From positions 112,661 to 176,660 of the forward strand of contig CAZHYV010000004.1 of the NCBI GenBank assembly GCA_964537055.1: a DNA stretch of 64,000 nucleotides, in the 5' to 3' direction. Below are positions 5,152-46,963 of the stretch, piece by piece (positions within the stretch are counted from its first letter, which is position 1; every line of letters starts with the position of its first letter). Made by a program: the position numbers and the translations under genes. This stretch comes from an uncultured Myxococcales bacterium. Lineage in GTDB: Bacteria; Myxococcota_A; Polyangia; Palsa-1104; JAEUJZ01. The notes beneath the pieces were generated by a model. That model searched no databases. It saw nothing but the letters and a program-made list of their open reading frames with translations, and was not told the origin of the DNA.

Positions 5152-5317
5152 TATTTTTCCTTATCATGATCCCTGCCAAAAAACCAGAAATCCCCTACAA
5201 AGAAAGATAAAGAAAAGAAATGAATCCTCGAGAAGAGTTCTTTAGGGAAGGATAGGAAAGACCGGTAAAAGGCTTTCGAAGATGAGAGAAGAAACAGATA
5301 GGAAGAAAGTAGAATTT

Positions 5318-7054
5318 TTACGTGTCAGAGTCTTCAGAAGAAGCTTTTTTCTTCTTGTTCTTCTGCTTTCCAAACACATCCGCCAAGGTGGCTCCGCCTG
5401 ATTCGTTGGCCTTGTATCCTTGCGCCATAGAAATCTCAGCACGCCTTTGGGCAGATCTCATCGAAAGACCAATCTTCCGCTCTTCGGGATCGACCAGAAC
5501 AACTTCGGCCTGAACCTCTTGGCCAGGCTTCAAAGCCGCTTTAGGGTCTCCGCCTTTGTCATCTACAATTTCAGAAATGTGAATGAGTCCTTCAATGCCC
5601 TGACCTAGTTCAACGAAAGCGCCAAAGTCTAGCATTTTTACTACTTTCGCGGTTACAATCTTGCCGACGGGCAGTTCGGCAGGGATATGCGCCCATGGAT
5701 CTTCGGCAAGCTGTTTGATGCCTAGCGAAATTTTTGGCTTATCTACTTCTCCCATATCGATCTGTAAGACAACAGCCTCGATCTCATCCCCTTTGTTATA
5801 CATTTCGGAAGGATTCTTAACCCTCTGGGTCCAGCTAAGATCAGACACATGGACCAGACCGTCAATCCCCTCTTCAATCTCAACAAACAAACCAAAGTCT
5901 GTCACATTGCGGATAGTTCCTTTGACTTTGGCGCCAATTGGGTACTTCTCTAATAAAGCTTCGTAGGGGTTTGGCTCAAGCTGTTTCATCCCTAGTGAGA
6001 TCCGGTTGTTTGCAGGATCTACTTCTAGCACAACTGCTTCCACCGTGTCGCCAATGGCCACCATCTTCGAAGGATGCTTAATTCTTCGCGTCCATGACAT
6101 TTCGCTGACGTGGATAAGACCCTCAATTCCTTCTTCAAGCTCAATGAAGGCGCCATAATCTTTGAGAGAGACAACCTTTCCACGAACCACAGTTCCAGGT
6201 TTATATCTCTCTGGCGCTGTTTTCCATGGATCTTCGGTAATTTGCTTCATCCCCAGGCTAACCCGCTCGGTGTCTGTATTAAACTTGAGCACCTTCACCC
6301 TGATATGATCTCCGACTCGAAATAGTTCGGATGGGTGGTTCACTCGACCCCAGCTCATATCGGTGATATGAAGCAATCCATCGATGCCTCCAAGATCAAT
6401 AAAAGCACCGTACTCTGTCAGATTCTTTACGATTCCTTCGACGATTTGGCCTTCCTGAAGTCTTTCAATGGTGTGTTCTTTCAGATGGGCACGTTCTTGC
6501 TCTAACAGAGCTCTTCGAGAAAGTACGATGTTGCCCCGCTTTTTGTTAAACTTAATTACTTTAAATTTGTAGGATTTACCAATGTATCCTTCGAGATTCC
6601 GCACAGGACGCAAGTCGACTTGGGAACCGGGCAGAAATGCCTTGACTCCTCCTCGAATCTGGACGGCAAGCCCGCCCTTCACTCGCTGGATCACAACACC
6701 TTCGATAAGTTCATCTTTCTCACAGGCAACCGCGATCTCATCCCATACCTTGAGGCGATCTGCCTCTTCTTTTGAGAGGACACAAAGACCGTTTTCATTC
6801 TCTCGGCTCTTTAAAACTACACCTACGGTATCACCCACATTTGCGGCAAGTTGACCGTCAGGGCCCATAAATTCAGCAATAGGAACCTGGCCTTCTGATT
6901 TATAACCGACATCGATGAGAACATGGTCTTTTGTGATCTGGACAATACGTCCTTGAATGACTTTGCCCTCGGCAACTTGTTCATTCTTTAGACTTTCTTC
7001 AAATAATGATGCGAAGGATTCTTCTTGGGAGGGGGACTGTTGGGACATGAACAT
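5318..7054 (-). CDS. rpsA: 30S ribosomal protein S1
   Basis: 578 aa with six tandem S1 RNA-binding repeats (recurring G..V.G.V..I...GAFV.L motifs). Confidence 0.9.
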   Translation of the reverse strand: MFMSQQSPSQEESFASLFEESLKNEQVAEGKVIQGRIVQITKDHVLIDVGYKSEGQVPIAEFMGPDGQLAANVGDTVGVVLKSRENENGLCVLSKEEADRLKVWDEIAVACEKDELIEGVVIQRVKGGLAVQIRGGVKAFLPGSQVDLRPVRNLEGYIGKSYKFKVIKFNKKRGNIVLSRRALLEQERAHLKEHTIERLQEGQIVEGIVKNLTEYGAFIDLGGIDGLLHITDMSWGRVNHPSELFRVGDHIRVKVLKFNTDTERVSLGMKQITEDPWKTAPERYKPGTVVRGKVVSLKDYGAFIELEEGIEGLIHVSEMSWTRRIKHPSKMVAIGDTVEAVVLEVDPANNRISLGMKQLEPNPYEALLEKYPIGAKVKGTIRNVTDFGLFVEIEEGIDGLVHVSDLSWTQRVKNPSEMYNKGDEIEAVVLQIDMGEVDKPKISLGIKQLAEDPWAHIPAELPVGKIVTAKVVKMLDFGAFVELGQGIEGLIHISEIVDDKGGDPKAALKPGQEVQAEVVLVDPEERKIGLSMRSAQRRAEISMAQGYKANESGGATLADVFGKQKNKKKKASSEDSDT

Positions 7055-37736: not shown

Positions 37737-37856
37737 GGACTATCTATAGCATAGATTTGCCTATACGCCAACGAAGAGATGTTCCAAACCCATGTTGAGA
37801 GGAGACTTTGCAGGCTTGATAGGCTTCTTCGGACTCCTTTGCGTGAGGCGAGGCCC

Positions 37857-38924
37857 CTATGCTTCTGACGCTAGCATCTGTAAGAACCAATCTTCATCGC
37901 TAATATTTTCAACGTCGACAAATTTTTTTGCAAGACTCTTCTGAATCTGCTCTATCGCAGAAACGAACGTTTTTTCCATGTAGTGTTTTTCGAGCAGAGG
38001 ATGGATGTAATATCTCCGACAGACGCTTGGCGTATTGCCAAGCTGTTTTGCGACTTGCTTCACAATCTCGCTATACCCTTTCTTTGAGGGGATTTTCCTG
38101 GAGGAAACCGCTGGCTCCTCACTCTGAAAACACGCTTTTAGCTTTTGAAAGGCGCATAAAGTTCCTGAAAAGGTACGAAAATCTTTTGCTGTAAACTCAT
38201 TGCCCGTGACTTCGTAAAGGTACTGGTTGACATCCGAGGAGCCAATGCTACAAAGCTCGTGGTTCTCATCCATGTATTGAAACAGGTCCTGCCCGGGCAG
38301 CTCTTGGCATTGCTTCACAATACGAGCAAGCTGTCTATCCGCAAGATCAATTTTGTGAAAGATGCCACTTTTCCCTCGAAAACGAAAGTGAATGGTGCTT
38401 TTGTCAATTTGGACATGATGGTTCTTGAGCGTAGTTAACCCAAAGGATCGGTTGGTTTTTGCATATGCTTCGTTCCCAATTCGAATTGATGTCGTCTCTA
38501 ATAGCCGAACCACCGTTGCAAGCACTTTTTCCTTCGGTAAACCTTTCAGTGTAAGGTGTTCCTCCACCTGCTTGCGTACTAAAGGTAAACTCTTTACGAA
38601 CATGAGCATTTTTTCGAATTTGGTTTCGTTCCTGATCGAAGAAAACGCTGGATGATAGAGATACTGTTTCCGATCTCTTGCATCGCGTCCCGTTGCCTGT
38701 AAATGTCCCTTTGGGTGAGGGCTAATCCACACCTTCGTCCATGCAGGAGGAATGCGCAATGCCTTGATCCGAAGAAGATGCTCCTTATCAATTAGAGCTT
38801 GGCCCTGTTGATCAAAATAACGGAACCCTCGTCCATACCGCCTTCGAGTAAACCCCGTGCTTTGATCAGAAACATATCGAAGCCCTGCTTCTTTTGCACT
38901 TTGCTTGGGTGCTGGCGCATTCAT
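37857..38924 (-). CDS. type IB DNA topoisomerase (poxvirus/bacterial TopIB family)
   Basis: N-terminus GFTRRRYGRGFRYFDQQGQ, core TSIRIGNEAYAK...GLTTLK, and a C-terminal catalytic-Tyr region NTPSVCRRYYIHP; 355 aa. Confidence 0.8.
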   Translation of the reverse strand: MNAPAPKQSAKEAGLRYVSDQSTGFTRRRYGRGFRYFDQQGQALIDKEHLLRIKALRIPPAWTKVWISPHPKGHLQATGRDARDRKQYLYHPAFSSIRNETKFEKMLMFVKSLPLVRKQVEEHLTLKGLPKEKVLATVVRLLETTSIRIGNEAYAKTNRSFGLTTLKNHHVQIDKSTIHFRFRGKSGIFHKIDLADRQLARIVKQCQELPGQDLFQYMDENHELCSIGSSDVNQYLYEVTGNEFTAKDFRTFSGTLCAFQKLKACFQSEEPAVSSRKIPSKKGYSEIVKQVAKQLGNTPSVCRRYYIHPLLEKHYMEKTFVSAIEQIQKSLAKKFVDVENISDEDWFLQMLASEA

Positions 38925-38982
38925 ACAGGCTCAACATAAGCTGCTTGGCAAAAAAGGAAAGGAGAAATACAATGGCTCCAGC

Positions 38983-40653
38983 ATGAAACCTCTCCTCTTT
39001 GCCCATCAAATCCAGGCTTTAGAACAACGATTTTCTTCTGAGACAGGGCTTCCTACGCTTCATTTGATGGAACACGCAGGCTATGCCATTGCCGATTGGA
39101 TTCAAGCGAGGATTCCTCAAAAAGAGAGTTGCCGCATCGTAGTAATCGCAGGCCCGGGAAGCAACGGAGGCGACGGCATGGTGGTGGCCAGGGCCTTACA
39201 TCAGCTGGGTCTCTCTGTACACGTCTTTTTATGCACAGACGCAGCAAGGCTCAAGGGAGATGCCAAGCTTCAATATGAGAAAGCATTAAGCAACCAGGTG
39301 CCTATTGAGCAGGTGCATCAAGCTGAAGATCCATTTCCTTCCCCTGACTCTTCTCAGTCTCTTTTTAGCTGCCTTCATTCGCTGGAATCACAAGATATTC
39401 TCGTCGACGCTTTGTTTGGCATTGGGCTCACTCGGACGCTCGAGGAGCCTTTTACCTCTATCATTCGTGCGATCAATGGAAGCAAAGCTACCAAAATCGC
39501 GGTCGATCTTCCATCGGGATTAATAGCAGATGCAGAAGGGATGAGAACAAAGACAGAAGCAGGAGCAAACATAGAGGAGCCCGGAACAAAGGTAGAAGCC
39601 CTGCGTGCAGAATCGCAGCTTCCGCAAAATGCGACCGAGGAAACCATCGTTCGGGCCGACCATACCTTGACCTTGGGATTCCCCAAGGTGGTCCTTTACA
39701 CTTCTCCAGGTTTTCTTTATGCAGGCCACGTCGAAGTGCTACCCATTGGCATTCCCGCAGGCTGGGCAAACGCCATCGGAAGCACAACGCATCTGTTAGA
39801 TCATTCTTGCCTGGAGAAACTTCGCAAACCCTTGCATCCACTAGCGCATAAGGGAAGCCATGGGCATTTATTCATCGTCGCGGGTTCGACGGGAAAGACA
39901 GGGGCAGCTCTATTATGCGGACAAGGGGCGCTGCAGACGGGTGTGGGTCTTTGCACATTGGCGGTCCCCACTCATCTTCACGACGTCGTGCAGGGAAGGC
40001 TTTACGAAAGCATGACCGCCTCTTATAGCTCGCTTGATGAGCTTCTCGAACTAGGGAGAAACAAAACAGCCTGGGTGATTGGGCCAGGGATCCCTACAGA
40101 GGAGAGGATGCAGGAATGGTTACCAAAGTTGCTTCAGCAAGGAGAGCAGCCCGTGGTGATTGATGCGGATGCCCTCAATCTCTTAGCGGTCCAAGGGGTT
40201 AAGCAGCTTCAGCCTATCGCTAAGCATCGGCCGCTTATTCTCACGCCCCATCCCAAAGAAGCGGCACGGCTCCTTAGAGTCGATACAAACCAGGTCCAGC
40301 AAGATCGAATAGGTGCAGTAAGGAAATTGGTCCATCTTAGTGGTGGGACCGTTGTGCTGAAAGGAGCTCGTACTCTGATCGCAGCTCCAATCGTGGGCTC
40401 TACGGCGGGTGCTGATGCTGTCCAAGTTTGGGTTTGCCCGACTGGGAATCCTGGCATGGCCACCGCTGGCATGGGAGATGTTTTGGCTGGAATGATCGGT
40501 GCTCTTCTAGCCCGAGGCTGGCCCGCTGACGAAGCTGCTTATACAGCGGTTTATGTTCATGGCCTTGCTGGGGACAAGCTCGCAAGCCGCTACCCTGTAG
40601 GCACCCTGCTTCGGGCCTCACAACTGTGTGAGATTTTACCGATGGTGGAGTAA
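38983..40653 (+). CDS. nnr: bifunctional NAD(P)H-hydrate repair enzyme Nnr (YjeF-N epimerase + YjeF-C dehydratase)
   Basis: IVVIAGPGSNGGDGMVVARAL (YjeF-N) and a C-terminal carbohydrate-kinase-like domain (GPGIPT, GDVLAG). The start is taken at the Met downstream of the divergent TopIB start. Confidence 0.85.
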   Translation: MKPLLFAHQIQALEQRFSSETGLPTLHLMEHAGYAIADWIQARIPQKESCRIVVIAGPGSNGGDGMVVARALHQLGLSVHVFLCTDAARLKGDAKLQYEKALSNQVPIEQVHQAEDPFPSPDSSQSLFSCLHSLESQDILVDALFGIGLTRTLEEPFTSIIRAINGSKATKIAVDLPSGLIADAEGMRTKTEAGANIEEPGTKVEALRAESQLPQNATEETIVRADHTLTLGFPKVVLYTSPGFLYAGHVEVLPIGIPAGWANAIGSTTHLLDHSCLEKLRKPLHPLAHKGSHGHLFIVAGSTGKTGAALLCGQGALQTGVGLCTLAVPTHLHDVVQGRLYESMTASYSSLDELLELGRNKTAWVIGPGIPTEERMQEWLPKLLQQGEQPVVIDADALNLLAVQGVKQLQPIAKHRPLILTPHPKEAARLLRVDTNQVQQDRIGAVRKLVHLSGGTVVLKGARTLIAAPIVGSTAGADAVQVWVCPTGNPGMATAGMGDVLAGMIGALLARGWPADEAAYTAVYVHGLAGDKLASRYPVGTLLRASQLCEILPMVE

Positions 40654-40785
40654 CATTCTTATAAGGATTTCACAGAGGTTTACTTATTTATAGGATACTT
40701 CGTTAGTGTTGGTTCTTTCTTCTTCCTTTGTGTGGCATATGCTACTGTTGTATGTCTGTGCCACTAACATTGGCAGGATTTTCTC

Positions 40786-40814
40786 TTGCGAGAATTTCGT
40801 CTATCTGATAAAAG
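40786..40814 (+). promoter_or_regulatory. candidate sigma70-like promoter for tRNA-Ala
   Basis: ttgcga, 17 nt, then taaaag, ending about 18 nt before the tRNA 5' end; the -10 element is weak. Confidence 0.25.
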
Positions 40815-40831
40815 TGGTCTCTCTAAAATTT

Positions 40832-40904
<73 letters not shown>

Positions 40905-40926
40905 TAGAAGATGTGGGAAATCAATG

Positions 40927-42220
40927 TCATTTCTCCTGCGTCTCAAAAAAATTACAAATCAGTTCTGTTTGCGTATTTTCGTATAAAAACCCATTGAAAA
41001 AGGCCCGATAATACTCGTTTTGGTATTTTGCCCTTTCGAGTGGATCTTTTCCTATAAGTTTCCAATCTCTGGAAAAAAGCCGAATAAAATCCTGTCCTGT
41101 TTGCGCGTTGATTCCATCAAAGATAGTTTTCTTTCCATCTTTGATCTTATCCACAAGAACGACTCGCTGATGAGTATGGTTAGCATCAATATAAGAAGAG
41201 AGTATCGCTTGGTTGATATAAGTATCAGCAAACCCGTACCCAATGATGAGCAGCCTACTGTTGTTACGCAAACATCTTCTGAAATATTCGTAATATGTGG
41301 CGAACGGTTCCTGTGCAATTACTCGATTCGATTTCTCTAACCCTGTAATTATTGGAAAATTATATTCGGATCTTCCTGCTTGGGATTGTTGTGCATATCG
41401 AGGAAATCTAAGATCCTTTTGGGAAAAAACTGCGATTTTCATTGAATGGCCAAATGTTTATACTACCATGCAAATGTGCAAGCCTTGGTCTTTCATCTGC
41501 TTCCATAAATAATGAAGGACTAAATATAAACCTATCTTCTATAGGGCGAAAACCACAGTCAATGTAGGATATTACTTCCTCGATACAGGGGTCATAATTT
41601 AATGTGACTATATTAAGTTGAAACTTCGATGCGAGTGTCTCCAGGAACGAACGATATCGAGAGTGTGCTTGAGAAATGTCTATGGGTAATTGCTGGACAC
41701 TATTAAGGACTTTCCTAGAATTTTGATAAATAGAATCTAAAACTTGATGAATGATTTTTGAAATAAGTCTACGAATAAACCATTCTATGTTTTGGGACGG
41801 CGATTCAGGCTCTCCGGAGGATAATTCACTCAAGAAGTCCGCTATTTCCTTATGAAATTCTTTTGTCAAAAAGCCTTCTACAGCGACTATGCCATGATAA
41901 CGAAGTCCGCTGTTTTTAGAGGGATAACTTCTATGGAGTGTTGAAAGAGTTTCTAGAGTATGGATCAGATGTTCAAAATTGATGAGTTCAACTTGCTTAT
42001 TTTTTTCACCAGGAGTAACTTTATATTCATTAGGGAAATCGTCTCGATAGCAGTTCGTCGTAAGCTGTTTAAGTATTTCTAAGAACTCTAGCTCCCGACT
42101 ATCAAACAATTTGTAACTATTACAAAAGATTTCCTTGGTTATGGCAACAGTACCAGGGATTTTCAACAATGTAGAGGCGCCAGCTCCAACAAGGATAGTA
42201 AGTCGTTCTTTTTTACTCAT
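40927..42220 (-). pseudogene. SIR2-like (SIR2_2 family) protein split by a frameshift in an A6 run (plus-strand 41424..41429)
   Basis: The N-terminal ORF (41408..42220) has LTILVGAGAS and a catalytic-His motif HLHGS. The C-terminal ORF (40927..41442) has LLIIGYGFAD. Deleting one T from the minus-strand T6 run joins the two frames directly (..NENRSFSQKDLRFPRYAQQ..), giving a roughly 425-aa protein. Confidence 0.6.
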
Positions 42221-43386
42221 TTGCTTAAATAAACTCTTTCTTCTAATCTATTCCGAGTGCGGTTAAGCTCTTCGACGAGTAACTTTTCGTCTGGAAGTTT
42301 TGTTTTGTATTCACTCGCCAGGACTTTGTTAGTAATCCCTTCTAATGCATAATGAACCACGGCATCTTCTTTCTGGGAACACAGAATTAATCCCACAGGT
42401 GGATTTTCTCCTTCTAGCCTCCAGTGCTCTCGTGCATAGTTTACATAAAGATGCATTTGACCCACGTCTGCATGGGTGAGACGTCCAATTTTCAAATCAA
42501 TGATGACCAGGCAGCGTAATCGTCGGTGAAAGAAGAGCAGATCGATTCGATACCATTCTGACCCTACGCGTAATCGTCTTTGGCGGCCAACAAAGGTAAA
42601 ATCGTTTCCCAGTTCAAGCAAAAAAGCTTCCAAATTTGCAATCAATGCTTCTTCTAACTTGCTCTCTGAATACTCGTCTTTTAGACCTAAAAATTCTAGG
42701 ACAAATGGGTTCTTAATCTCTTCTTCCGGGGTCAAAGCATATTCGGGTTTTGCTGGTGTTTCCTTCTTGAGAAGATTTGCTTTATTCTTAGACAGAAGGG
42801 CCCGCTCATAAAATTGACTATCGATTTGACGCTCTAACTGTCTTACGCTCCACCCACCTCGAAGGGCTTCTGCTTCATAGAAAGCACGGGCTTCTTCTGA
42901 GCGTGTCCGACGAATCAATAAAACGTAATGCGACCACGATAAAGGAAATGGGACCTTCCTATTTTTTCCTTCGACCTTTAATTCCCCAGACACTGTCTGG
43001 GGAATTTGTCGTTGTGCATAAATCGAATAGAATCGTCGAGCGTCTTCCAATCGAGTAATCGAAAACCCTCGACCAAATCTTTCAGTGAGATGATGAGAAA
43101 GATAATGCAGTAATTCCTGACCATACTGCGCCCGTTCTTTTCCCTGTTGTTCTTGCTCGATGATCCGTTTTCCTAAAGACCAATACATCGTTGTCATAAT
43201 GAGATTGACTGAGCGCACAGCGTTCCTTTTCGCTTGCTCGATAAGCCCTACTAAGTCATCTAACATCGTCTTGTAGTCGGATTGCGATACAAGTTTTGCC
43301 TTTGGTAAGAGATTGTCTCTATTCGATCGCTTTTTGTTCTTTGGTAGTGGCATCTTAGACAGGTACAGTAGCGTTTTTTCATCCAA
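42217..43386 (-). CDS. YhcG/DUF1016-family PD-(D/E)XK nuclease
   Basis: 389 aa with PLSWSHYVLLI in the N-domain and a C-terminal PD-(D/E)XK core (RIDLLFFH...VIIDLK...GQMHLYVNY). Its stop overlaps the SIR2-like start (ATGA). Confidence 0.7.
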   Translation of the reverse strand: MDEKTLLYLSKMPLPKNKKRSNRDNLLPKAKLVSQSDYKTMLDDLVGLIEQAKRNAVRSVNLIMTTMYWSLGKRIIEQEQQGKERAQYGQELLHYLSHHLTERFGRGFSITRLEDARRFYSIYAQRQIPQTVSGELKVEGKNRKVPFPLSWSHYVLLIRRTRSEEARAFYEAEALRGGWSVRQLERQIDSQFYERALLSKNKANLLKKETPAKPEYALTPEEEIKNPFVLEFLGLKDEYSESKLEEALIANLEAFLLELGNDFTFVGRQRRLRVGSEWYRIDLLFFHRRLRCLVIIDLKIGRLTHADVGQMHLYVNYAREHWRLEGENPPVGLILCSQKEDAVVHYALEGITNKVLASEYKTKLPDEKLLVEELNRTRNRLEERVYLSK

Positions 43387-43555
43387 GAGGAAAGTGCCGA
43401 GACAAGAATTTATTCAAACAAATGTAGGAGAATGCCAAACCTTACTGCTCCATTTTAACATCAAAGGAGCCAAAAATAGTTTCTTTATTCACGTAAGTAG
43501 TTAAAAGTGCAGAACTTTGTGGAACTGGACAACGATACCATAAAGCTTCTCATCA

Positions 43556-43610
43556 GTAGAGTGTCTGAATGGCATTCAGACGGTCAGGGGTTCGATTCCC
43601 CTCAGCTCCA
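43556..43610 (+). repeat. direct repeat of the 3' 55 nt of tRNA-Ala (att-like islet boundary)
   Basis: gtagagtgtctgaatggcattcagaCggtcaggggttcgattcccctcaGctcca differs from tRNA positions 19-73 at two positions. Confidence 0.8.
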
Positions 43611-43721
43611 TCATTTTGTCTTACCTGTGATAGTTTATACGGTTGCGTTTTTTCTTATGGTACGAATTTCATCTAGCCGTGCATAGTACTCTGCCTGGTA
43701 CTTGCGAAAAGCGTACGACGG

Positions 43722-44339
43722 CTACAGAAGAGGTTGCGTAAGAATTTTTTCTTGAAGGAACATCAAAACAATGAGCAATCTACCAATCCGCCCGTTGCCA
43801 TCTAAAAAGGGGTGTATGATCTCAAACTGGGCGTGAGCCAAACCTGCCTTTATTAATGGAGGTATGTCTTTGTCTTCGTTAATAAACTTCTCTAAATCAC
43901 TCATGAGTGATGAAATTCTTGTTGCTAGGGGAGGAGTGAGATTTTTAACACTCACCTGTTGTTTACGATAAGATCCAGGATCTGCATGGCCCCCTAACTC
44001 TCCCTGCATAAGTTCTCGGTGAGCTGCCAAGATTACTCGCGAACTCACAGGCAGGCTCTTTTCCCCTCTAAGAGATGCCCAGGCGGTATATAAACACCTT
44101 AGGTAATTTGAAACCAGTCGAGTATCGGGATGGCTCTTTTCTAAAGAGCGTTCCTCTTTAAACACATTTTTGATGGTTGTATGAATCCCCTCAATCGCTG
44201 AAGAAAGAACCCCCTCCTTGATCACGTAAGATTTAATAAATTCTCCTAGATGCGGAACTCTAGAGGCTACTTCATTAAGCTGGCCCAACAAGTGCATCGC
44301 CTGGCCATAAAGTGCTATCGTTTCTGTATCGTAGGCCAA
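43722..44339 (-). pseudogene. Fic/Doc-family protein, C-terminally truncated
   Basis: N-terminal inhibitory motif SAIEG and active-site motif HPFLDGNGRIGR. The ORF stops 18 aa after the Fic motif, whereas Fic domains normally continue for more than 80 aa. Confidence 0.6.
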
Positions 44340-44418
44340 CGGAGGGGTTTGAGGGAGAAGGGAATAAATGATTTGAGCTCTGCCAGAACTTCATAACTTC
44401 CGGTCTCACGACGTTTCA

Positions 44419-44506
44419 CCCTATTTCAGTCTTACCGTAAAACCTGAAATAAGCCAGCGCAAACCAGGTCGTTATTTCATTTTTTTAATGAAATCTGAAA
44501 TAGGGG
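44419..44506. repeat. nested inverted-repeat element built from a TATTTCAG/CTGAAATA motif
   Basis: ccctatttcag (44419-29) pairs with ctgaaataggg (44495-505); tatttcag pairs with ctgaaata (44422/44444); atttcat pairs with atgaaat (44475/44490). Confidence 0.4.
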
Positions 44507-44764
44507 TCTTATATTTTCGAGCAAACTCTCACACCTGTGTAACCAGTTGATGACATTGTTCCATAGATACTATATTGGGGGTTCCCTCAAGAATCTTTTA
44601 ATCCCTTTTCTTTTTATCCCCCGCCAAATGATGCTTCTGAAGGCACCTGCCAGGCTTTTCAGGGAGGGTAAATTCGATTTCGTTTTTCTGTAGAAGTGCC
44701 TTAAATAATGTAGCACCCATCTTGAGCATTTGACTCCTTCCCATCCTTGGGCTATTTTTCCTTC

Positions 44765-45523
44765 ATGACAACTTTCCAAAATCAAGTCGCACTTGTCACA
44801 GGAGGAAGCTCAGGAATCGGCAGGGCAACCTGTCTTGCCTTTGCCCGTGAAGGCGCTAGCGTAGTCGTTTCTGACATTTTAGAAGCAGGAGGAACCGAAA
44901 CTGTCGGGCTGATTCGGAAAATAGGAGGAAATGCCATTTTCGTAAAAGCCGATGTTTCAAATTCTAGCGAGGTCCAAAATTTGATTGAGACTACGATCAG
45001 AACCTACGGCCGGCTTGATTGTGCTTTCAATAACGCAGGGATCTCCGGGACGATGGCAACCACCGCAGATTGCACCGAGGAAAACTGGGACAATGTGCTT
45101 GCAGTCAATTTACGAAGCATCTTCCTTTGTATGAAGTACGAACTTCGGCAGATGCTAAAGCAGAAACAAGGCACCATTGTCAATTGTTCCTCAATCGCTG
45201 GACTTGTCGGTTTTGTAGGTTCTCCTGCCTATGTAGCCAGCAAGCATGGCATTGTAGGTCTTACCAAAACAGCGGCGCTGGAGTATGCGACTTCGGGAAT
45301 TCGAGTAAATGCCGTCTGCCCAGGGGTCATTCGTACCCCCATGGTCGAGGCCTATACCAAAGGTCATCCTGAGCTTGAGGCGCAGTTTGTGAACGCAGAG
45401 CCGGTCCATCGGTTGGGCACGCCCGAGGAAATTGCTGAAACCGTCCTGTGGCTCTGTTCGAATGCTGCCTCTTTCATCACTGGACAAGCCCTCGCAGTCG
45501 ATGGAGGTTGGGTCGCCCAGTAG
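44765..45523 (+). CDS. SDR-family NAD(P)-dependent oxidoreductase
   Basis: ALVTGGSSGIGRAT cofactor motif, NNAG, and the catalytic Y..K in PAYVASKHG. Confidence 0.85.
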   Translation: MTTFQNQVALVTGGSSGIGRATCLAFAREGASVVVSDILEAGGTETVGLIRKIGGNAIFVKADVSNSSEVQNLIETTIRTYGRLDCAFNNAGISGTMATTADCTEENWDNVLAVNLRSIFLCMKYELRQMLKQKQGTIVNCSSIAGLVGFVGSPAYVASKHGIVGLTKTAALEYATSGIRVNAVCPGVIRTPMVEAYTKGHPELEAQFVNAEPVHRLGTPEEIAETVLWLCSNAASFITGQALAVDGGWVAQ

Positions 45524-45697
45524 GCATTCCAGTAGGTATCTTTGCATTTCGGGTTTTGACCAGCGATTTTATTGCACCCAGCCCTCCAAGAGCGCTCGAT
45601 TATCTTCTGAGAAGTTCGGCACTTGCTTTCTCTTGGGGGATGTACGCCTTGTCGTTGCCCCTCCTCGTGGTACACCTACTTTAGGGAGGGTACCTCT

Positions 45698-46963
45698 ATG
45701 AAGATCAAATTCTTACACCCTATCCACCGATTCTTACGATGTCTACCTACACTTGTTCTAAGCACAGGAATTGCTGTTTCCTTGACCCAAACGGCATCAG
45801 CAACTCCGTTTTTACGGACAGGAACTTTTTATCCAGATGTTCTTGAAGACGAAAGGATTGTTTGTTCTAACCAAAACACCGTTGGAGCTCTACCCGTTTC
45901 ACAATGTCGCGAGGTCGCCCGCGACTTTTACCGTGAACTTTATTTCCAAGTAAAGAATTTTACCCCGACCGCCGCTTTTGAAGTGATCCAGCCCACCAGC
46001 ATCGAATTTCTTACAGACGGTTCTGGCTTTACCAAGGGCCTTTTTGAAGCGATTCCAGGCTATGTTGGCCTCACCGGCGGGAATCCCTTCAATATCAGTA
46101 TCGAAAATGCTTTTATTTATCAACCCCTTGATGACAAACATGTGGTGTTCTTTGGGGCTCCTCTGTTCACAAACTTTGGGATAAGCCCAGATCAAAAGGC
46201 CTACATCACCAACATCCAGATGACTCTGTACCGACGCATCCATGGGGATGCCTTTGATCCGACCTGCCGCTCTGCACAAAATCCAGGTGGAAATCTTTGC
46301 TGGGCGATTATGGCAGAACTTTGGGCGTACCGGTCTCCTTTAGGTTTTGGCCTCGCTTTGTCGGATGCTCCTATCCCCTCGACTCCGCAGCCGAATACAC
46401 TTCTAAGGAGCGATGATTTTCCAGTTGTGCTTGAACCAGAACGCATCATCTGTGATAGCCAAATTGCGGCGGCTGAGGTAAATGATCCCGCATGGGTGCA
46501 AACCTGTAAAACAGTTGCTCAAGAATTTTACGCTCAATTTCGGTTGGATATGAAAAACATGACGGCCGCAGGAATGTTTGATATGCCCGCAAGCGTTCTT
46601 ATGATTCCAGATGGCTCTGGATACGTGGGTGGGGTACAGACAAAGTCGCTGTATAGTGATATCGTTGATGGACATACGAAAATCATAGATGTCAGAAATG
46701 CCTTTTCTTATAAACCTACCGATCGAGATACAATCCTTGTACTTGGCGCACCCCTTCTTACCATCGCCAAGGAAGATGGTTCTGATGTTCGCTTCTTCCA
46801 TAATGCACAGCTGAGCGTCTACAAAAGGACTCTCGAGGGACTCCACTCCCCCCAAGATTGCCGCTCTGATTCGAACCCGCTTGGCAACGTCTGCTGGAAG
46901 CTGATGAACAAACTATGGATCCCTCAACAAGTGCTGGGCGCAGGGGTTTCTTCTACACCTTAA
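45698..46963 (+). CDS. hypothetical secreted protein made of two tandem homologous roughly 190-aa domains
   Basis: Signal peptide (VLSTGIAVSLTQTASA). Repeat 1 (about aa 50-240) and repeat 2 (about aa 250-440) align throughout, for example ER(I/V)(V/I)C.SQ, (D/E)FY..(L/F), DGSG(F/Y), NAF.Y(Q/K)P, GAPL(F/L)T and NP.GN.CW..M..LW. Confidence 0.5.
   Translation: MKIKFLHPIHRFLRCLPTLVLSTGIAVSLTQTASATPFLRTGTFYPDVLEDERIVCSNQNTVGALPVSQCREVARDFYRELYFQVKNFTPTAAFEVIQPTSIEFLTDGSGFTKGLFEAIPGYVGLTGGNPFNISIENAFIYQPLDDKHVVFFGAPLFTNFGISPDQKAYITNIQMTLYRRIHGDAFDPTCRSAQNPGGNLCWAIMAELWAYRSPLGFGLALSDAPIPSTPQPNTLLRSDDFPVVLEPERIICDSQIAAAEVNDPAWVQTCKTVAQEFYAQFRLDMKNMTAAGMFDMPASVLMIPDGSGYVGGVQTKSLYSDIVDGHTKIIDVRNAFSYKPTDRDTILVLGAPLLTIAKEDGSDVRFFHNAQLSVYKRTLEGLHSPQDCRSDSNPLGNVCWKLMNKLWIPQQVLGAGVSSTP

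Follow-up and report, generated by a model that had tools for sequence, protein, structure and literature searches.

A probable decaying tRNA-Ala islet with an intact YhcG/DUF1016 gene and a frameshifted SIR2-like gene

Introduction

Proteins of the YhcG/DUF1016 family (COG4804; Pfam PF17761 and PF06250; PADLOC phage-defence candidate PDC-S02) are usually about 375 amino acids (aa) long, carry an E-D-(D/E)xK nuclease motif, and have no fixed partner gene. The nuclease motif of the family was described in a bioinformatic study of 2005, and the neighbourhood analysis published there reported no conserved gene association for YhcG (PMC1189080). Apart from that study, the literature that we searched holds annotation mentions of DUF1016, YhcG, or PDC-S02, and no experimental work on their anti-phage or nuclease activity. 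SIR2_2 domains form a superfamily with NAD-binding motifs common to all its members, among them the SIR2 proteins of SIR2-HerA (Nezha), SPARSA (Aga_SIR2), Thoeris (ThsA), DSR1/DSR2, and Avs5. Islands integrated in tRNA genes, and the integrase-less cis-mobilisable elements (CIMEs), consist of low-GC cargo flanked by direct repeats that derive from the 3′ end of a tRNA gene. Here we analyze a small locus in which all three come together, at positions 40906-43611 of a stretch of 64,000 nucleotides from an uncultured Myxococcales bacterium (GenBank assembly GCA_964537055.1, contig CAZHYV010000004.1, positions 112,661 to 176,660 of the forward strand). We refer to that whole stretch as the window.

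A preliminary description of this locus proposed that its two genes, one for a YhcG/DUF1016 nuclease and the other for a SIR2-like protein, are translationally coupled and may form one sensor-nuclease plus NADase system, a pairing not known from any described system. Our analysis points in a different direction. We find it likely that the locus is a decaying, integrase-less islet at a tRNA-Ala gene, with an intact stand-alone YhcG gene, an orphan SIR2_2 gene that was inactivated recently, and, adjoining them, a truncated SoFic-like gene. The two genes of the proposed system would then be unrelated genes of defence type that move independently, and their adjacency an accident of island assembly. 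Seen in this way, the locus illustrates how small tRNA-linked defence islets may erode, with the integrase lost and two out of three defence-type genes damaged.

An islet bounded by tRNA-Ala repeats

An intact tRNA-Ala(GGC) gene lies at 40831..40905 on the plus strand (ARAGORN; Rfam tRNA, 70.7 bits). Its 3′ 56 nucleotides (nt), at 40850-40905, form the left, attL-like member of a pair of direct repeats, and the right, attR-like member at 43556..43611, also on the plus strand, is a partial tRNA-Ala copy that Rfam still reports as a partial tRNA (29.9 bits). The two repeats agree at 54 of 56 nt, with two mismatches, and their similarity starts and ends abruptly at the repeat edges. The interval that starts after the tRNA gene and closes with the second repeat (40906-43611) measures ~2.7 kb. 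The GC content of the islet is 0.38-0.42, versus about 0.44-0.50 across most of the window. No open reading frame (ORF) for an integrase is present in 40906-43611, nor among the 10 ORFs that we scanned in the region 44.7-59.6 kb. The earlier characterization of the place as a tRNA-flanked, low-GC, integrase-less islet is thus borne out.

As in tRNA-integrated islands and CIMEs, tRNA 3′-derived repeats flank low-GC cargo here, but this islet is only 2.7 kb long and has neither an integrase nor an excisionase. We see it as a CIME-like object, probably the small remnant of an element that would have integrated in the 3′ end of tRNA-Ala(GGC). Between the repeats there is the YhcG gene, the SIR2-like gene in the form of two ORFs, and nothing else. 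On the minus strand of 40927-43386 these appear as three ORFs of 389, 270, and 171 aa. A scan for promoters and terminators in 40600-44800 gave counts equal to what is expected from shuffled sequence, and it supports nothing.

Two overlapping genes that do not travel together

The stop codon of the YhcG gene (TGA) and the ATG of the SIR2-like gene share the four nucleotides ATGA at 42217-42220 on the minus strand (tcat on the plus strand). One can read the pair as a new two-gene system, in which a nuclease-like sensor would act together with an NAD+-depleting SIR2, a system specific to its lineage and recently inactivated in this genome. Such a reading draws on the shared strand and the ATGA overlap, on the fact that both domains are of defence type, and on the absence of any further gene between the att-like repeats. 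If it were right, relatives of the two genes should be found side by side elsewhere, and conserved co-occurrence was the check that the preliminary description had set for itself.

We see no such co-occurrence. For the SIR2-like gene we collected 96 loci with relatives, 80 of them from species-representative genomes, 13 from viral contigs, and three from metagenome contigs, and none has a YhcG gene within 5-6 kb (tblastn, E<=1e-3). In one further copy, on an annotated Arthrobacter plasmid, the SIR2 gene is flanked by recombinase genes, again with no YhcG. Starting from the other gene, a hidden Markov model (HMM) of this SIR2 family finds no SIR2 near YhcG in any of 85 loci, all of them loci of close YhcG relatives with 52-67% identity. 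The pair is therefore syntenic in no sampled locus.

Nor do the two families keep any other constant company. The genes immediately next to YhcG relatives, 98 in 65 loci, spread over 92 Pfam families, each occurring at most 4 times; Phage_integrase (4 of the 98 neighbours), N6_Mtase, and ResIII lead, and the listing of the 25 commonest families does not include SIR2_2. For the 22 loci with full-length SIR2 relatives, an all-against-all BLASTP comparison of the neighbours (1e-5) gives no shared family, except in two pairs of near-identical metagenome-assembled genomes. The genes upstream of SIR2 relatives encode, for instance, TetR, MazF, a Dam methylase, a trypsin-like peptidase, or a Piwi-domain ORF.

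The overlap itself is found again where no SIR2 is involved. At least 1 kb of sequence downstream of YhcG is available in 46 loci, and the same 4-nt overlap joins YhcG to the next gene in 7 loci. Five of those downstream ORFs are complete, and they encode HsdS (2), NeuB (2), and an Mrr-NB-ARC-TPR protein of STAND type (1); the other two run off their contigs. Thus the ATGA arrangement in the window is real, and the translational coupling that was proposed from it is not specific to this pair. More generally, a stop/start overlap inside a defence islet is no proof of a functional pair, given that YhcG relatives overlap unrelated genes just as tightly.

Another measure is how conserved each gene is on its own. 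The YhcG protein is 60-67% identical to its nearest homologues, and the SIR2-like protein 30% identical to its nearest one. With conservation this discordant, no close copy of this SIR2 can accompany the close YhcG copies found in other places; this alone excludes co-inheritance of the two as a unit in the sampled biosphere. Taking into account as well that PADLOC lists YhcG as a single-gene candidate, and that the SIR2-like gene is frameshifted (see below), we regard a two-gene system as very unlikely.

What the relatives of both genes do share is the kind of place in which they live. Near them we find genes for SduA_C (Shedu), GmrSD_N, a PNP_UDP_1 protein, a type ISP restriction enzyme, and Mrr, and further a CBASS system, an Avs-like gene, a PIN-TPR protein, an AAA protein with an S8 peptidase, and a RecD2-like helicase. 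The earlier claim that both genes are of defence type agrees with this, and from such neighbourhoods a defence role of each gene by itself seems plausible.

Neither gene needs to be immune, of course. YhcG could be a selfish nuclease, or one of mobile elements, that hitch-hikes from genome to genome, and the SIR2-like protein could be, now or formerly, a regulatory deacylase or an ADP-ribosyltransferase. The finding of YhcG relatives in very distant lineages at 60-67% identity would fit with that, as would the place of Phage_integrase as the most frequent single neighbour family of YhcG, the presence of some relatives in housekeeping contexts such as NeuB, and a searched literature that contains no experimental anti-phage evidence for DUF1016. 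But relatives of both genes sit among bona fide defence genes, and the folds closest to the SIR2-like protein all belong to anti-phage NADases rather than deacetylases. We consider a non-immune role for both genes to be quite unlikely.

As an example of these neighbourhoods, one metagenome contig (ENA ERZ25039485 contig_32641; L084, 5001-8860) has a YhcG gene 67% identical to that of the window, which lies between a complete CBASS operon (SAVED, SMODS, Cap2, and JAB) and an Avs-like gene. That Avs-like gene is the Mrr-NB-ARC-TPR one; its start and the YhcG stop share 4 nt, an arrangement like that of the window but with another partner.

The SIR2-like gene is frameshifted

The preliminary description treated the SIR2-like gene as a single gene, and only its mention of a "corrected operon" hinted at a problem. 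The gene is in fact present as two overlapping ORFs on the minus strand, with frames one base apart. The N-terminal fragment (41408..42220, 270 aa) contains the motifs GAGAS, NFE, and NYD, and the catalytic HLHGS; the C-terminal fragment (40927..41442, 171 aa) contains PIITGLEK and LLIIGYGFAD. Translation in three frames places the +1 change of frame in the zone 41411..41457 of the minus strand, delimited by two stops, the one upstream in the C-terminal frame (41458-41460) and the one that ends the N-terminal frame (41408-41410). The zone falls just after HLHGS, and includes a run of six Ts (T6) on the coding strand at 41424-41429.

Scored one at a time, the two halves reach 19.6 bits (N-terminal) and 21.1 bits (C-terminal) with the Pfam SIR2_2 model (PF13289), versus a gathering score of 24.5; repaired into one protein of 430 aa, they reach 41.3 bits versus the same 24.5, with no other Pfam domain. 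The assignment of the gene to SIR2_2 therefore stands with respect to its motifs (GAGAS, HLHGS, and IIGYGFAD are all there) and to the repaired protein, but each of the real ORFs stays below the threshold. PADLOC matches the C-terminal ORF to Aga_SIR2 with E=2e-12. NCBI annotates the N-terminal ORF as a protein of 270 aa (P0001), for which a look-up returned nothing on record.

Is the frameshift really there? A contig from the Logan collection (L082, run SRR11567529), which we reached through the C-terminal ORF (P0065), matches the window with 100% identity along 1,238 bp that span the lesion, and it carries the same two overlapping ORFs. No intact allele is found among 5.8 billion clustered proteins. 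And the repaired protein is abnormally short where the two halves join. The catalytic His and the conserved Gly of PIITG are 42 residues apart, versus 50-64 in 40 of 40 aligned relatives, so that the join is 8-22 residues shorter than in every one of them. This makes a deletion of 3n+2 nt likelier than the miscall of one base, and such a deletion is what, from the sequence, the lesion probably is. In a model of the repaired protein made with AlphaFold2 (AF2), residues 257-273 stand out as the one long stretch modelled with very low confidence, with a predicted local distance difference test (pLDDT) score <50.

The +1 change directly after the strand of the catalytic His would inactivate the protein: the second half of the SIR2 Rossmann fold would no longer be translated in frame.

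An artefact of sequencing or assembly, or a minority allele, would leave an intact SIR2 protein of 430 aa and two independent single-gene defences, both working. The T6 homopolymer in the frame-change zone and the invariant residues kept on both sides of it are what one would expect from such an error, and a second Logan contig, from run SRR11567520, which ends at 41403, could be a polymorphic branch. The SRR11567529 contig speaks against it, having been built independently and crossing the site with identical sequence, with the caveat that this contig and the window assembly are not fully independent if they share reads. The protein collection holds no intact version, and a region shorter than in every relative is more easily a deletion than a 1-nt miscall. 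All in all, we think an artefact or minority allele unlikely. The contig from SRR11567520 (L088) corresponds to window positions 37798-41403, with the same junction between tRNA and islet. Its end falls a few bases short of the frameshift zone, perhaps by chance or perhaps because the site is polymorphic.

One may also ask whether the split gene still makes an active SIR2, by programmed +1 ribosomal frameshifting or by complementation of a split Rossmann fold from two chains. The N-terminal frame ends in ...AAA GGA UCU UAG A, where a ribosome that skips a base at the stop would continue in the C-terminal frame, and where AAGGA looks like a possible Shine-Dalgarno-like stimulator; in the structural model, the split falls within a predicted loop. 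But a +1 slip from UCU to CUU leaves the P-site tRNA unable to pair again, no relative has a conserved frameshift site, and the loop is abnormally short. A relative in Marinifilum breve (L030) that is also split is split elsewhere, in a manner that resembles ordinary decay. For want of re-pairing and of conservation we reject programmed frameshifting, and we give an active SIR2 produced in either way next to no chance.

In that relative, from the isolate Marinifilum breve JC075 (L030, 5998-7250), the SIR2 gene is divided into two ORFs, one of 233 and one of 165 aa. Inactivation may be a recurrent event in this SIR2 family.

Several observations weigh against the reading that we prefer, a chance neighbourhood with one broken gene. 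Apart from the frameshift, the SIR2 frames have no internal stops, and all 16 of the 16 invariant columns in an alignment of 41 members are present in them (with GxGxS, NYD, HxHG, and GYGFxD among the motifs); a gene so well kept means that the lesion is recent, polymorphic, or conceivably tolerated. Being co-oriented, with a stop/start overlap of 4 nt, the YhcG and SIR2-like genes fit co-transcription. Moreover, the sampling is finite, and about half of the metagenome contigs with YhcG have <1 kb downstream. One can thus imagine a rare YhcG plus SIR2 system, restricted to a lineage, whose relatives are too scarce or too divergent to be found in roughly 180 sampled loci, and to this we assign a very small probability. 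With the pair accidental and one of its genes broken, as we prefer to read the locus, cloning the "operon" would not probe a new immune mechanism.

A family of stand-alone SIR2 proteins

The repaired protein has a best full-length homologue only 30% identical to it, and most of its relatives are stand-alone SIR2_2 proteins of 400-430 aa. Its AF2 model has a pLDDT of 79 and a predicted template modelling score (pTM) of 0.85. With this model, the best matches that Foldseek finds in the PDB are the SIR2 chains of Escherichia coli SIR2-HerA (E=6.8e-9, template modelling (TM) score ~0.5, 14-17% identity), followed by SPARSA, ThsA, Avs5, and DSR2. Human sirtuins do worse, with E ~2e-3 for SIRT2 versus E ~1e-8 for SIR2-HerA. 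A sequence profile search of the PDB agrees that the SIR2 of SIR2-HerA is closest.

Closest does not mean identical. The protein shares with the SIR2 of SIR2-HerA a length of ~400 aa, a Rossmann core with a large helical insertion, and the catalytic His, and this is its closest solved fold; but identity and TM score are as low as just given, the window gene is frameshifted, the islet has no HerA gene, and in the 22-locus comparison above the relatives share no neighbour. With SPARSA/Aga_SIR2, Thoeris ThsA, DSR1/DSR2, and Avs5 it has in common the SIR2_2 superfamily and its NAD-binding motifs. On the other hand, the islet lacks pAgo/APAZ, a SLOG domain, ThsB, a 1000-aa sensor domain, and a STAND ATPase, and no pAgo or TIR ORF is found in it. 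The 430-aa protein, made of SIR2_2 only, is without the accessory parts that define Thoeris (SLOG plus ThsB), SPARSA (APAZ plus short pAgo), or DSR (a sensor of ~600-800 aa). We reject an identity with SIR2-HerA, with Thoeris, or with SPARSA, in each case for absence of the partner genes.

The scores tell the same. The best PADLOC model for the repaired protein is Aga_SIR2, with 72.9 bits, and there is no match to ThsA; the NCBIfam model SIR2_antiphage (NF042942) gives 23.9 bits versus a cutoff of 500, and NCBIfam has no model for this SIR2 family. Scores for short-pAgo, ThsA, DSR, and Avs5 are far from family level. What we have is a family of ~410 aa that is associated with defence islands and that stays below every curated family threshold.

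It is tempting to see in this partner-less family an undescribed single-protein NADase defence, closest to the SIR2 of SIR2-HerA, and we put that forward tentatively, as a possibility that we would not bet on. In the reading of the locus that we prefer, intact members would be self-contained NAD+ hydrolases that abort infection. A stand-alone SIR2 family of ~410 aa, SIR2-HerA-like and without HerA, is in our opinion a reasonable candidate for testing, by way of an intact member.

A few loci of relatives deserve mention. In one (L073), a distant SIR2 relative at 5231-6879 lies directly downstream of a Piwi-domain ORF, a pairing of short-pAgo type, in keeping with the finding that, across the whole SIR2 family, Aga_SIR2 is the PADLOC model that scores best. 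In two unrelated loci (L090 449-4497 and L030 5200-7250), a gene for a Trypsin_2 peptidase is found upstream of the SIR2 relative; in the first of them, a PNP_UDP_1 protein of 546 aa is encoded between the two. Trypsin_2 plus SIR2 may be an association proper to a sub-family.

The YhcG gene

The longest ORF of the YhcG gene runs at 42217..43386 on the minus strand, with 389 aa counted from a TTG. Translation probably begins at one of two ATGs, at 43353 (378 aa) or at 43266 (349 aa). The alignment of some homologues to the 378-aa form begins at its residue 2, and the NCBI record (P0069) has 349 aa.

The gene is intact, and its identification as a YhcG/DUF1016 PD-(D/E)XK nuclease is confirmed. 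The sequence PLSWSHYVLLI and the core D...IDLK...Q..Y are both present. Pfam finds DUF1016_N at residues 46-195 (E=8.7e-42; 142.9 bits versus a cutoff of 32.8) and the YhcG_C PD-(D/E)XK nuclease domain (E=9e-58), so that the gene has both domains of the family at full length. PADLOC PDC-S02 (PDLC04807) matches with E=1.3e-134, with protein residues 35-384 covering profile positions 10-345 out of 351. NCBIfam has no model for YhcG. Among 23 aligned members (the window protein and 22 homologues), D271, D286, L287, and K288 are invariant, in the numbering of the 378-aa form that we use for YhcG residues; Y303 is invariant as well, Q299 nearly so, and the window protein keeps all invariant residues.

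There are at least 8,000 homologues at E<=1e-30, of which the best listed are 60-67% identical, scattered over very distant lineages. An AlphaFold model, based on 23 close homologues, is too poor for a fold search (pLDDT 60.8, pTM 0.33).

As judged from its sequence, the gene is a known single-gene candidate, PDC-S02, which speaks against the two-gene system proposed earlier. From the family it differs in nothing of substance; its downstream neighbour here just happens to be SIR2-like. The protein would act alone as a DNA endonuclease, possibly with roles split such that the helical DUF1016_N domain recognizes the target, and the C-terminal PD-(D/E)XK domain, with its E-D-(D/E)xK motif, cleaves it.

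A truncated Fic gene and the surroundings of the islet

Just outside the right repeat, at 43722..44339 on the minus strand, there is a truncated SoFic-like Fic gene (PADLOC SoFic, E=3.4e-60). Its product of 205 aa aligns to positions 21-223 of a profile with 361 positions, that is, to about the first 60%, HPFLDGNGRIGR included, and the C-terminal part is gone. Pfam recognizes Fic_N and Fic, and NCBIfam SoFic gives 100.5 bits versus a cutoff of 550. With it, the site of the islet has two damaged genes of defence type. We considered that this fragment could lie inside a second islet in tandem with the first, and rejected the idea, as no third, degenerate tRNA repeat was found.

Beyond the Fic fragment follow ordinary genes, such as those for a short-chain dehydrogenase/reductase (SDR), an S41 peptidase, and a Cu/Zn superoxide dismutase. 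The GlmU protein of this bacterium has no known counterpart above 59% identity, and its relatives with a name come from Myxococcales metagenome-assembled genomes. Between the Fic fragment and the SDR gene lie 400 bp of non-coding sequence, which contain an imperfect inverted repeat at 44419-44505, with arms of 34 nt that are 74% complementary, a spacer of 19 nt, and the core CCCTATTTCAG / CTGAAATAGGG. Farther on, an ORF of 446 aa at 45623-46963 on the plus strand has no Pfam match and a signal-peptide-like N-terminus. It apparently consists of two similar halves, each with ...ERI(V/I)C(S/D)(N/S)Q...NP(G/L)GN(L/V)CW... On the other side, just upstream of the tRNA gene and beside a gene for an NAD(P)HX epimerase/dehydratase, a gene for a bacterial type IB topoisomerase, with the domains Top1B_N_bact and Topoisom_I, is found at 37857-38924 on the minus strand.

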